From assembly GCF_030013205.1 (NCBI RefSeq), contig NZ_CP122648.1: a stretch of DNA of 64,000 nt, one strand, 5' to 3'. The notes beneath the pieces are model-generated. The model was not told the origin of the DNA. It was given only the letters and a program-made list of their open reading frames with translations, and searched no databases. Positions 3,159 to 12,436 of the stretch are shown here, piece after piece (within the stretch, counting starts at the first letter, position 1; the number at the start of each line of letters is the position of its first letter). Made by a program: the position numbers and the translations under genes. Origin of the DNA: Escherichia coli (lineage in GTDB: Bacteria > Pseudomonadota > Gammaproteobacteria > Enterobacterales > Enterobacteriaceae).

Positions 3159-4847
3159 ATGAGTGGTGAAAAAAAGGCGAAAGGCTGGCGGTTCTATGGT
3201 CTTGTAGGTTTGGGCGCAATAGTACTGCTTTCCGCTGGCGTCTGGGCGTTGCAATATGCTGGCAGTGGGCCAGAAAAAACGTTGTCGCCGCTGGTGGTGC
3301 ACAACAATCTGCAAATCGATCTCAATGAGCCGGACCTCTTTCTCGACAGCGACTCTCTGAGCCAGCTTCCCAAAGACCTCCTTACCATTCCGTTTCTCCA
3401 CGATGTTCTGAGTGAAGATTTCGTTTTCTATTATCAGAATCATGCCGATCGTCTGGGCATTGAAGGCAGCATTCGCCGCATTGTCTATGAACACGATCTC
3501 ACGCTGAAAGATAAGCTCTTTTCGTCACTCTTAGATCAGCCCGCGCAGGCGGCGCTATGGCACGATAAACAAGGCCATCTTTCACATTACATGGTGCTGA
3601 TCCAGCGCAGTGGTTTAAGCAAACTGCTGGAGCCATTGTTGTTTGCCGCTACCAGCGACAGCCAGTTAAGCAAAACGGAAATCAGTAGTATTAAGCTAAA
3701 TAGTGAAACCATCCCGGTTTATCAGTTGCGCTATAACGGCAATAACGCCCTGATGTTCGCGACTTATCAGGACAAGATGCTGGTGTTTTCCAGTACGGAT
3801 ATGCTGTTTAAAGATGACCAGCAGGATACCGAAGCCACGGCGATCGCAAGTGATTTGTTGAGCGGTAAAAAACGCTGGCAAGCCAGCTTTGGCCTGGAAG
3901 AGCGTACTGCCGAAAAAACGCCAGTACGCCAGCGCATCGTGGTCAGCGCCAGGTTGCTGGGGTTTGGCTACCAGCGATTAATGCCTTCTTTTGCTGGCGT
4001 ACGCTTCGAAATGAGCAACGACGGCTGGCATAGCTTTGTGGCGTTAAATGATGAATCCGCAAGCGTAGATGCCAGTTTCGATTTTACGCCGGTATGGAAC
4101 AGTATGCCTGCCGGGGCCAGCTTCTGTGTGGCGGTGCCGTATTCGCATGGTATTGCCGAAGAGATGCTTTCGCACATCAGCCAGGAAAACGACAAGCTGA
4201 ACGGGGCGTTAGATGGTGCAGCCGGGCTGTGCTGGTATGAAGACTCAAAATTACAAACCCCGCTGTTTGTCGGTCAGTTTGATGGCACTGCCGAACAGGC
4301 ACAACTGCCTGGGAAACTGTTTACGCAAAATATTGGTGCGCACGAAAGCAAAGCGCCAGAAGGTGTTTTGCCGGTAAACCAGACTCAGCAGGGCGAAGCG
4401 CAAATCTGGCGTCGCGAAGTGAGTTCCCGATACGGCCAGTATCCGAAAACACAGGCGGCGCAACCAGATCAACTAATGTCGGATTATTTTTTCCGCGTGT
4501 CGCTGGCGATGCAAAACAAAACGCTGCTTTTCTCCCTCGATGACACGCTGGTTAATAACGCGCTGCAAACACTGAATAAAACCCGCCCGGCAATGGTGGA
4601 TGTAATACCCACTGACGGCATCGTTCCGCTCTATATCAATCCACAAGGCGTGGCGAAACTGCTGCGTAACGAAACGCTGACCAGTCTGCCGAAGAATCTC
4701 GAACCGGTTTTTTATAACGCCGCACAAACTTTATTAATGCCGAAGCTGGACGCTTTATCTCAACAACCGCGTTATGTCATGAAGCTGGCACAGATGGAAC
4801 CCGATGCCGCCTGGCAGTGGCTACCCATAACCTGGCAGCCGCTATGA
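3159..4847 (+). CDS. yfaA: DUF2138-family membrane-anchored protein YfaA
   Basis: ORF 3117..4847; start placed at the internal ATG 3159 (AAGGA about 9 nt upstream) giving 562 aa [31 protein letters not shown] with an N-terminal hydrophobic anchor; first gene of the yfaA-yfaP cluster downstream of gyrA. Confidence 0.8.
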
Positions 4848-5467
4848 GGCACGGACTGCTGGCGCTGATTTGCTGGCTGTGTTGTGTTGTTGCCCATAGC
4901 GAAATGCTGAATGTCGAACAGTCGGGGCTGTTTCGCGCCTGGTTTGTGCGTATTGCACAGGAACAGCTCCGACAGGGGCCAAGTCCGCGCTGGTATCAGC
5001 AGGATTGTGCGGGCCTGGTGCGATTTTCGGCGAACGAGGCGCAGAAAGTTCACGACAGCAAATGGCTAAAAAGTAACGGCATAGCAAGTCAGTATTTGCC
5101 GCCTGAAATGACGCTAACACCTGAACAGCGTCAACTGGCGCAAAACTGGAATCAGGGGAACGGAAAAACCGGCCCCTATGTGACCGCGATTAATTTGATT
5201 CAGTACAACAGCCAGTTCATTGGCCAGGACATAAACCAGGCGCTGCCTGGCGATATGATTTTTTTCGATCAGGGCGATGCCCAGCACTTAATGGTCTGGA
5301 TGGGGCGTTACGTCATCTACCACACCGGAAGCGCCACGAAAACTGACAACGGAATGCGCGCAGTCAGTCTGCAACAACTTATGACATGGAAGGACACCCG
5401 ATGGATACCCAACGATTCCAATCCCAATTTCATTGGCATTTATCGTTTAAATTTTCTGGCGCGATAG
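4844..5467 (+). CDS. yfaT: DUF1175-family protein YfaT
   Basis: ORF 4817..5467; internal start [20 protein letters not shown] (signal-like) at 4844 overlaps the yfaA stop in an ATGA junction; 207 aa. Confidence 0.75.
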
Positions 5468-11655: not shown

Positions 11656-11659
11656 TGCT

Positions 11660-12436
11660 ATGCGAAAGATTTTTCTTCCGTTGTTACTGGTGGCGCTTTC
11701 GCCTGTCGCTCACAGTGAAGGTGTGCAGGAAGTCGAGATTGATGCACCGCTCTCTGGCTGGCATCCGGCAGAGGGCGAAGATGCCAGTTTTTCACAATCG
11801 ATCAATTACCCGGCGTCGTCCGTCAACATGGCAGATGATCAAAATATCTCAGCGCAGATCCGCGGCAAAATAAAGAATTATGCTGCGGCGGGTAAAGTTC
11901 AGCAGGGCCGGCTGGTGGTCAACGGTGCCAGTATGCCGCAGAGAATTGAATCCGATGGTTCATTTGCACGCCCTTATATTTTCACTGAAGGCAGCAACAG
12001 CGTGCAGGTCATCAGCCCTGATGGGCAAAGCCGACAAAAAATGCAGTTTTACTCAACGCCGGGCGCTGGAGTGATCCGCGCGCGTTTACGGCTGGTTCTC
12101 TCCTGGGATACGGACAATACCGACCTCGATCTTCACGTTGTAACACCCGATGGCGAACACGCCTGGTACGGTAACACCGTGCTGAAAAACAGTGGTGCAC
12201 TGGATATGGATGTCACGACGGGGTACGGACCCGAGATTTTCGCCATGCCAGCGCCGATTCACGGACGTTATCAGGTGTATATCAACTACTATGGCGGACG
12301 CAGCGAAACGGAATTGACGACCGCCCAACTGACGCTGATCACCGATGAAGGATCGGTCAATGAGAAACAGGAAACTTTCATTGTACCGATGCGTAATGCT
12401 GGCGAGTTGACGCTGGTGAAAAGTTTTGACTGGTGA
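11660..12436 (+). CDS. yfaP: DUF2135-family secreted protein YfaP
   Basis: 258-aa ORF with signal peptide MRKIFLPLLLVALSPVAHSE; 4 nt after the yfaQ stop; last gene of the cluster. Confidence 0.75.
   Translation: MRKIFLPLLLVALSPVAHSEGVQEVEIDAPLSGWHPAEGEDASFSQSINYPASSVNMADDQNISAQIRGKIKNYAAAGKVQQGRLVVNGASMPQRIESDGSFARPYIFTEGSNSVQVISPDGQSRQKMQFYSTPGAGVIRARLRLVLSWDTDNTDLDLHVVTPDGEHAWYGNTVLKNSGALDMDVTTGYGPEIFAMPAPIHGRYQVYINYYGGRSETELTTAQLTLITDEGSVNEKQETFIVPMRNAGELTLVKSFDW

Follow-up and report, generated by a model that had tools for sequence, protein, structure and literature searches.

Gene content and integrity of the yfa locus

We analyzed a 64,000-nucleotide stretch of contig NZ_CP122648.1 of an Escherichia coli genome (assembly GCF_030013205.1), referred to below as the window. 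Its positions 3159–12436 contain, on the plus strand, the genes yfaA, yfaT, yfaS, yfaQ, and yfaP, flanked by gyrA (383–3010, plus strand) and atoB (12510–13694, convergent with yfaP). This region is the five-gene enterobacterial form of the type II, or Mag-type, alpha-2-macroglobulin (A2M) system. An earlier note on the window had assigned the same gene identities, and the Pfam families agree with them. The first gene, yfaA (3159–4847), encodes a DUF2138 protein of 562 aa, the ortholog of Pseudomonas aeruginosa MagB; its frame is open up to a GTG at 3117, and the PGAP start is the ATG at 3159. It is followed by yfaT (4844–5467; 207 aa, DUF1175, NlpC/P60-like), the ortholog of MagC, and by yfaS (5401–10005; 1534 aa), the ortholog of MagD and a thioester-less member of the A2M family with the domains MG2, A2M_BRD, A2M, and bMG10. 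The remaining genes are yfaQ (10006–11655; 549 aa, GTG start), encoding the MagE ortholog with the arrangement DUF2300 – SpoIID-like – DUF2300, and yfaP (11660–12436; 258 aa, DUF2135), encoding the MagF ortholog.

The genes are tightly coupled, as had been noticed previously. yfaA and yfaT overlap by 4 nt (ATGA), yfaT and yfaS by 67 nt or 82 nt depending on whether yfaS starts at 5401 or 5386, the TAA of yfaS is followed without a gap by the GTG of yfaQ, and a 4-nt spacer separates yfaQ from yfaP. This packing, together with the conserved synteny described below, suggests that the five genes are co-transcribed.

The frame of yfaS is open from 5386 to 10005, that is, over 1539 codons with no stop; assuming three stops per 64 codons, the chance of such a frame is about e^-74. 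The earlier note had described yfaS as a single 1539-codon open reading frame (ORF). The frame is indeed uninterrupted, but 1539 codons is the maximal ORF, and the protein is likely of 1534 aa, starting from the ATG at 5401. The 9.5-kb stretch covering the locus (bases 3000–12500) is 100% identical in the assembly of K_EC180 (swine, Korea); its identity to almost all of the remaining complete E. coli genomes is 95–99%. At its distal end, the window has a 100% match only in the porcine strain ETEC4079. Hence, the open yfaS frame has probably been seen in two independent assemblies, the ETEC4079 match concerning the distal window end.

The locus as such is already known and represents the ordinary state of E. 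coli; the family has been characterized since 2004, and in detail in 2013–2025. Budd and coworkers reportedly gave the first description of two bacterial A2M forms in 2004. The PADLOC defense models had no matches among the five Yfa proteins. The description of the cluster as poorly understood is only half true: the mag operon of P. aeruginosa has been studied by biochemical and genetic means (PMC3735191, PMC5764988, PMC12663445; MagC structure 7BK8), and a phenotype of an E. coli yfaQ deletion has been published (PMC12282094).

Putative leader and terminators

A terminator-like hairpin of gyrA at 3058–3086 on the plus strand (−19.0 kcal/mol, a 13-bp stem followed by CUUUUGU) leaves just ∼70 nt (3090–3158) for a yfa promoter and leader. 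The yfaA leader with the Shine-Dalgarno region, TTACACAAGGAATGTGGCA (3137–3158, plus strand), is retained in E. whittamii, Escherichia sp. E1V33, and E. albertii, and the sequence further upstream varies. The leader core, ACAAGGAAUGU, resembles a CsrA/RsmA site, which we treat as a weak lead; the magA leader of P. aeruginosa is described as a direct RsmA target (PMC3735191). At the other end, a hairpin at 12470–12502 between the convergent yfaP and atoB (−17.2 kcal/mol) has T-runs on both strands. It includes a terminator-like call on the minus strand at 12497–12476, and its plus-strand tail is TGTTTTTATT. It is probably a bidirectional terminator marking the end of the operon.

Export signals and the start codon of yfaS

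All five products have hydrophobic N-termini, in line with the signal peptides and membrane anchor predicted previously. By hydropathy, YfaT, YfaS, YfaQ, and YfaP carry such N-termini with A-x-A or AHS cleavage contexts, the signal peptides of YfaT and YfaP ending with VVAHS/E and PVAHS/E, respectively, while YfaA has a single N-terminal transmembrane helix at residues ∼12–34, which would serve as a signal anchor.

Three candidate starts are available for yfaS within its maximal ORF. The ATG at 5386, which yields the longest ORF, is not preceded by a Shine-Dalgarno sequence. The ATG at 5401 has GGAAGGA 6 nt upstream and yields 1534 aa. The GTG at 5491, the RefSeq/PGAP start, yields 1504 aa, lacks a Shine-Dalgarno sequence, and would leave out the hydrophobic core. 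Translation from 5401 gives a plausible Sec signal peptide of 38 residues (5401–5514), beginning with MDTQRF and ending with ANA/DD, the first 22 codons of which are dual-coding with the 3′ end of yfaT. The Shine-Dalgarno sequence and the start codon (5388–5403) are located within yfaT codons of an invariant motif.

For comparison, one genome per species was scanned with a YfaT/MagC alignment; this yielded 426 loci, and the best 80 were analyzed. In 63 of these 80, from Escherichia to Pseudomonas, both in-frame ATGs are present, at distances of 82 and 67 nt from the yfaT/magC stop that follows. This two-ATG overlap is conserved because both ATGs, like the Shine-Dalgarno sequence, form part of the codons for the invariant YfaT motif. 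In Pseudomonas and Yersinia there is an extra Met near the magC end; that ATG in P. citronellolis (L052) overlaps the magC stop as ATGA, and its E. coli equivalent is ATA. Given the Shine-Dalgarno sequence, the signal peptide, the cross-genus conservation of the ATG, and the lack in E. coli of an ATG at the magC stop, the likely start of yfaS in E. coli is the ATG at 5401. The GTG at 5491, used across E. coli RefSeq genomes, is then probably a systematic start mis-annotation that most likely cuts off the YfaS signal peptide.

Two other types of signal were considered and rejected. YfaS could be read as a lipoprotein (AIAA/C), but the Cys and its context are not retained outside Escherichia (Superficieibacter, Enterobacillus, Pseudomonas); an A-x-A/[DE][DE] cleavage context downstream of this Cys is retained among YfaS relatives. 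A Tat signal (DTRR in Pseudomonas) was rejected because ∼20 residues separate the RR from the hydrophobic core that follows, the E. coli sequence is QR, and the overlapping codons of yfaT constrain this stretch. Like MagD, YfaS is best interpreted as soluble and periplasmic.

Thioester site and bait region of YfaS

YfaS matches four Pfam families above their curated cut-offs: MG2 (91.4 bits), A2M_BRD (63.7), A2M (48.4), and bMG10 (26.9). There is no Pfam match to the TED domain. The CxEQ motif is absent from the entire translation, as the earlier note had read it. In the numbering of the 1539-codon frame, the two cysteines of YfaS are at positions 30 and 1194. The thioester-site remnant is GVIN (residues 1069–1072; 8605–8616, plus strand), which aligns with CLEQ and CVEQ sites, namely with YPYG-CLEQ-TASGLFP of ECAM, the product of yfhM (BLASTP with the K-12 protein), and with PYG-CVEQ-TASRLIP of relatives. 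In full-length alignments YfaS is 37–55% identical to family members, several of which have CVEQ at the GVIN site; the match to the TED of ECAM is weak. The missing CxEQ lowers the status of YfaS as a thioester protein, not its membership in the fold family. A search with the TED segment alone returned matches filled with E. coli fragments and no intermediate relatives.

A putative bait motif, ATNRSERR (residues 850–857; 7948–7971, plus strand), corresponds to ANRSERG of MagD (847–853) and is located just past the A2M_BRD match (residues 666–811 in the 1539 numbering). In MagD, ANRSERG has been replaced experimentally, which demonstrated bait cleavage and trapping (PMC5764988).

YfaS shares with metazoan A2M, complement C3–C5, and CD109 the MG-domain architecture and presumably the bait-and-trap logic, and a search of PDB with YfaS yielded weak matches of the MG2 region to C5 and CD109 (E from 2e-4 to 1e-2). 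The same direct sequence search matched neither ECAM nor Sa-A2M. Unlike the metazoan proteins, YfaS is bacterial, lacks the thioester, and has no detected receptor-binding domain; it would be monomeric, periplasmic, and tethered to the membrane through its partners.

The type I systems, YfhM (ECAM) of E. coli and Sa-A2M of Salmonella, each with PbpC, belong to the same superfamily and have the same multi-MG-domain build; they are periplasmic, held at the inner membrane, and paired with a peptidoglycan enzyme, as is predicted for YfaS. The motif of the TED region, YPYGCLEQTASGLFP in ECAM, can be aligned with its YfaS equivalent. Still, the best BLAST segment between YfaS and ECAM has only ∼22% identity. 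A lipobox (LALAGC) and CLEQ at 1187 are found in ECAM, and both are missing from YfaS. The partner of ECAM is pbpC, in a two-gene unit, whereas the partners of YfaS are four DUF proteins with no pbpC adjacent.

The partner proteins YfaT, YfaQ, and YfaP

YfaT matches DUF1175 (E 2.5e-57) and, below the 23-bit cut-off, NLPC_P60 (19.3 bits). Its NlpC/P60 fold follows from 74% identity (E 5e-102) to the solved structure of MagC, 7BK8. Cys55 (QQDCAGL), His148 (QHLMVW), and His160 (YHTG) are invariant in the YfaT/MagC alignment.

In YfaQ, DUF2300 was found twice, at residues 84–205 and 412–532. The SpoIID family scored 26.7 bits against the cut-off of 23, yet the match covers just profile positions 2–65 of 97. 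The YfaQ family profile matched SpoIID structures at E 0.016–0.07, including 4RWR and 5I1T (E 0.016–0.06), and placed Glu334 on the Glu of their conserved S/G-E-M motif, which we take to be the catalytic Glu of SpoIID. Residues S60xxK63 (SLWK; 10183–10194), K195-T196, Glu334 (11005–11007), and eight cysteines are invariant in all 80 sequences; the cysteines are consistent with export of YfaQ. In addition, YfaQ contains HEYLH (residues 520–524; 11563–11577, plus strand), a match to HExxH followed by D535, E536, and E540, all of them invariant. This HExxH is retained in 44 of 44 sequences of a separate alignment and in 80 of 80 sequences, down to 37% identity, and is a possible zinc-peptidase motif. 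We found no mention of it in the literature searched, and Pfam matches up to E 10 in the C-terminal third of YfaQ include no peptidase family, only DUF2300.

A study of K-12 reported that cells are wider after yfaQ deletion, which groups with mepK, mepS, and nlpI mutants, that YfaQ residues 24–245 resemble a PBP3 domain and residues 320–445 resemble SpoIID 4RWR, and that YfaQ-msfGFP is undetectable; yfaS is not mentioned there (PMC12282094). Based on the conserved residues, YfaQ/MagE may act as an enzyme in the periplasm instead of being a chaperone in the cytoplasm. Macroglobulin processing (from 165 to 100 kDa) might be its task, or it might or repair peptidoglycan as the counterpart of the type I PBP1c.

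The AlphaFold2 model of YfaP is all-beta (pLDDT 82), with what we read as two beta-sandwich domains, and its structural matches are generic only.

Relation to the Mag operon and repeated loss of the thioester

In P. aeruginosa, magABCDEF correspond to PA4492–PA4487, and a table of COGs and features is available for all six proteins (PMC3735191). Both MagA and MagF belong to COG4676, like YfaP; MagB, with its one transmembrane helix, to COG4685 (YfaA); MagC to COG3234 (YfaT); MagD to COG2373 (YfaS); and MagE to COG5445 (YfaQ). The best 80 of the 426 loci came from three other Escherichia species, two Superficieibacter, Enterobacillus tribolii, Yersinia alsatica, and ∼71 Pseudomonas. The gene order is identical throughout the 80 loci and also in two metagenomic ones, L014 and L017. 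Identity to the Pseudomonas loci is 43–49% for YfaA, 67–76% for YfaT, 51–55% over ∼1530 aa for YfaS, 52–57% for YfaQ, and 50–58% for YfaP.

The two operons are alike in the families DUF2138, DUF1175, A2M, DUF2300, and DUF2135 and their order, in signal peptides on all products but the single-helix anchor, in the bait NRSER, in the absence of the thioester cysteine from MagD and YfaS, and in the frame overlap of magC/magD and yfaT/yfaS. There are also differences. The mag operon has six genes and yfa five: MagA, the second DUF2135 paralog, is found upstream in none of the seven Enterobacterales loci, and tblastn detected one YfaP copy in the Enterobacterales loci covering the cluster versus two in Pseudomonas. 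E. coli lacks the ATG that Pseudomonas has at the magC stop, its start probably being 67 nt upstream. The cluster is next to gyrA only in Escherichia among the loci compared, and the mag operon of P. aeruginosa is regulated by Gac/Rsm.

Type II has been defined as A2M without CXEQ (PMC5764988), the key residues being described as missing (PMC12663445). At the sequence level, YfaS has no CXEQ, carries a Sec signal and no lipobox, and has a single-helix DUF2138 partner, and thus belongs to type II. However, a survey of the family shows that the thioester is not foreign to such operons. Searching representatives of 50%-identity clusters with the C-terminal half of YfaS gave 844 matches at E ≤1e-3, and CxEQ was present in 54 of the 71 representatives covering the site. 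CxEQ members, for example L013, L014, and L015, reside within Mag-type operons, the layout of L014 being DUF2138-MagC-A2M-DUF2300-YfaP_C-YfaP_C.

The genome loci show the same. Among 78 of them, the site reads GVEQ in 55, CVEQ in 14, GVIN in four, GVVN in three, and SVEQ and GVEH in one each. The CVEQ loci, all from Pseudomonas (L025, L027, L033, L037, L040, L042, L046, L051, L052, L060, L067, L073, L076, and L080), are complete six-gene operons, e.g., in P. viridiflava, P. panipatensis, P. indica, P. citronellolis, and P. delhiensis. In most of the remaining Pseudomonas loci, the sole difference from CVEQ is the replacement of Cys with Gly. In all seven Enterobacterales loci the site is GV[IV]N, compared with GVEQ in most of the sampled Pseudomonas loci, which do not include the P. 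aeruginosa MagD. This distribution suggests more than one loss of the thioester within the Mag-type operon family, the enterobacterial site being the most degenerate. Thioester-bearing Mag operons go beyond the literature searched, which did not extend to Budd et al. (2004). Taken jointly, the two proposals, that the Mag-type operon is not inherently thioester-less and has repeatedly lost this feature, and that YfaQ/MagE may be an active periplasmic enzyme, form a tentative combination that we consider rather doubtful as a whole.

The K-12 lesion and selection on the operon

The earlier note had given yfaS as a pseudogene in K-12. This is so: RefSeq annotates it as a pseudogene with an "internal stop", and the alignment located the sole K-12 lesion at 9502–9504 (plus strand), where the TGG codon for Trp1368 of the 1534-aa YfaS is replaced by TGA. 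The ungapped alignment with yfaS of K-12 AG100 contains 152 nucleotide and 33 amino-acid differences and this one in-frame stop.

To count the alleles, 30-mers centered on the lesion base were matched to 5426 complete E. coli genomes, with an exact word of 28 nt required. The TGA allele was found in 364 genomes, all listed carriers being K-12-type laboratory strains (MG1655, BW25113, DH1, C600, HB101, MC4100, JM83, and others). The TGG allele is present in at least 4500 genomes (1412 and 3088 on two common flanking haplotypes). The intactness claimed for yfaS is thus correct, but not as a peculiarity of this strain. The yfa cluster is present in 5398 of the 5426 genomes, and yfaQ was found in ∼98% of 131,610 genomes (PMC12282094). 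Compared with four divergent strains at dS of 0.02–0.2, the ratio of nonsynonymous to synonymous substitutions (dN/dS) is 0.04–0.25 for all five genes and 0.07–0.085 for yfaS. Since TGG is found in at least 4500 genomes, the cluster is near-universal, and the selection is purifying, the intact cluster is the norm in E. coli and is kept by selection.

Sporadic lesions do occur. In strain 2024CK-00474, yfaS is interrupted by a stop at codon 713 and yfaA by a frameshift, and NH-21 has lesions in yfaA and yfaT. In the E. albertii type strain NBRC 107761 (L021), the yfaA ortholog (8307–10001) contains an internal stop in the frame that aligns with E. coli YfaA, and the remaining cluster seems intact.

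The K-12 stop is 501 nt before the start of yfaQ and probably uncouples or lowers the translation of YfaQ and YfaP, as the GTG of yfaQ abuts the yfaS stop.

The allele of this strain is unusually divergent and mosaic. The dS to K-12 is ∼0.12–0.13 for yfaA, yfaT, yfaS, and yfaP, and just 0.03 for yfaQ and 0.07 for the 3′ end of gyrA; an identity of at least 99% across the 9.5 kb is reached by only 29 genomes. This pattern suggests recombination within the yfa operon.

Proposed function of the Yfa system

As the probable role of the operon, with moderate confidence, we propose a periplasmic trap that is tethered to the inner membrane, catches invading hydrolases, and is coupled to partners that bind or remodel peptidoglycan. 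All five products would be exported. YfaA would reside in the inner membrane via its one N-terminal helix and, like MagB, hold and stabilize soluble YfaS, with YfaP (MagF) taking part. A foreign hydrolase entering the periplasm, either a protease or a peptidoglycan-targeting effector sent in by a competitor's type VI secretion system (T6SS), would cut or engage the exposed bait loop ATNRSERR; YfaS would then change shape and hold the hydrolase non-covalently, the thioester being replaced by GVIN. YfaT (MagC, NlpC/P60 fold) would bind peptidoglycan, and YfaQ (MagE), with its PBP-like and SpoIID-like parts and HExxH, might remodel or repair the wall or process YfaS, in parallel to PBP1c, which is the partner of YfhM, the type I macroglobulin with a thioester.

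This model combines features computed here, that is, gene content, integrity, packing, export signals, Mag orthology, thioester loss, the bait motif, selection, and prevalence, with what is known about Mag; that the E. coli proteins act like the Pseudomonas ones, and how the labor is divided among the partners, we infer. MagD is periplasmic, associates with the inner membrane via MagB, and forms complexes with MagA, MagB, and MagF (PMC3735191). It traps TEV protease non-covalently after bait cleavage (PMC5764988), and magD deletion sensitizes P. aeruginosa to the peptidoglycan-targeting T6SS effectors VgrG3 and Tae1 (PMC12663445). In P. aeruginosa, the 100-kDa form is lost without MagB or MagC, and processing is altered without MagE.

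Several observations weigh against this proposal. Neither MagC nor MagE formed a stable binary complex with MagD, and in P. aeruginosa MagE was recovered in the cytoplasmic fraction (PMC3735191), in conflict with YfaQ as a periplasmic enzyme. DUF1175 is listed as catalytically inactive and peptidoglycan-binding (PMC10318531, which cites Zouhir 2021), although its Cys, His, and His residues are invariant in the loci compared here. VgrG3 is lysozyme/chitosanase-like and not a protease (PMC12663445), hence a simple "protease trap" cannot explain everything. MagA is missing from E. coli, which argues against a simple transfer of the Mag model, and the mechanism may differ, as the site is more degenerate in Enterobacterales (GV[IV]N) than in Pseudomonas (GVEQ). 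A sigma-70 scan gave no match upstream of yfaA and one match within the operon, versus 6.7 expected by chance. K-12 survives without full-length YfaS, and other strains have sporadic lesions; therefore, the system is dispensable in culture. Finally, we found no experiments on E. coli YfaS itself in the literature searched.

The leading alternative is that the operon is mainly a module for peptidoglycan remodeling or envelope maintenance in which YfaT and YfaQ are the working parts and YfaS is a large periplasmic scaffold or a regulator of these enzymes and no trap. This would fit the yfaQ deletion phenotype, which comes from K-12 with its truncated yfaS, the invariant catalytic-type residues of YfaT (Cys55, His148, His160) and YfaQ (S60xxK63, K195-T196, Glu334, HExxH), the loss of the thioester, and the protection by MagD against peptidoglycan-degrading effectors, one of them a non-protease. 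The title of Zouhir 2021, as quoted via PMC10318531, has MagC binding peptidoglycan. However, the bait motif is shared with MagD, which traps a protease after bait cleavage in vitro; CxEQ in 54 of the 71 representatives is sensible only for covalent capture; DUF1175 is reported as inactive; and the role of the partners as peptidoglycan enzymes is itself a prediction from sequence. We regard this explanation as unlikely, if worth keeping in mind.

The original idea of A2M mimicry would make the operon a host-colonization factor, with YfaS neutralizing host proteases, such as neutrophil elastase or gut proteases, in a damaged periplasm. MagD changes conformation on binding human neutrophil elastase (PMC3735191), and the virulence of magD mutants is lower in a model of chronic infection, a result cited in PMC5764988; moreover, nearly every genome of E. 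coli, which is a commensal and a pathogen of the gut, carries the cluster. The closest relatives, though, are mostly soil and plant Pseudomonas and insect or environmental Enterobacterales (Enterobacillus, Superficieibacter), not specifically animal colonizers, Salmonella is said to lack type II A2M (PMC5764988), and the genetic phenotype is so far inter-bacterial, which makes this role improbable.

That the operon is a decaying remnant with no current function, its yfaS frame here simply not yet hit, would accommodate the K-12 nonsense mutation with the independent lesions in other strains, the stop within the yfaA frame of the E. albertii type strain, the fully degenerate thioester site, and the undetectable YfaQ-msfGFP in K-12, but is very improbable given dN/dS of 0.04–0.25 in all five genes, the cluster in 5398 of 5426 complete genomes and yfaQ in ∼98% of 131,610, TGG at the lesion site in at least 4500 genomes, and motif positions invariant even in comparison with distant relatives.

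Other features of the window

The gene atoS (17934–19768, minus strand), which encodes the sensor kinase for acetoacetate, is split into two ORFs, 17934–19310 and 19292–19768. In the identical sequence of K_EC180, atoS is annotated as a frameshifted pseudogene, and atoC and atoDAEB are intact. The Rfam matches are those expected for the region, namely naRNA4 between rcsC and rcsB (22772–22848, plus strand, 73.4 bits) and MicF by ompC (26509–26602, minus strand, 116.8 bits). The gene eco (34749–35237, minus strand), encoding ecotin, the other periplasmic protease inhibitor in E. coli, is 22 kb from the yfa operon; this proximity is probably coincidental. The quinolone-resistance region of GyrA is wild type at Ser83 and Asp87, with no fluoroquinolone-resistance substitution there.

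The autotransporter gene yejO (a neighbor of yfaO) is intact (863 aa; 48784–51375, plus strand) and annotated accordingly. In K-12 it is presumably disrupted by an insertion sequence; if so, yejO would be another K-12 pseudogene that is intact in wild strains within the same window.

Past yejO, at ∼51400–64000, there is a mobile element, in the place where K_EC180 has tRNA-Pro and yejM. It carries genes for an integrase (from 63403 to the window end, minus strand), a helix-turn-helix regulator, YlcI/YnfO, DUF4222, a RepA-family helicase (59114–60529), ProQ/FinO, PerC, NUDIX, and DUF2213 proteins, and a 679-aa lytic transglycosylase (53362–55401), as well as a partial Icd-like gene. The element is 100% identical only in porcine ETEC4079, and at least 80% of it is found in just four of the 5426 genomes. 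ARAGORN detected no tRNAs in the window. The element looks like a satellite or an integrative element at the proL site.

Implications

Data on this operon obtained in K-12, in particular the yfaQ phenotype and the undetectable YfaQ fusion, need to be read with the yfaS stop in mind. Wild E. coli, on the other hand, offers a tractable five-gene Mag system, and the role of Mag in T6SS resistance was demonstrated only in 2025. In the family as a whole, thioester-bearing and thioester-less versions coexist in one operon type, even inside one genus. If this holds, the states from CVEQ to GV[IV]N would represent a natural series for the transition from covalent to non-covalent capture.

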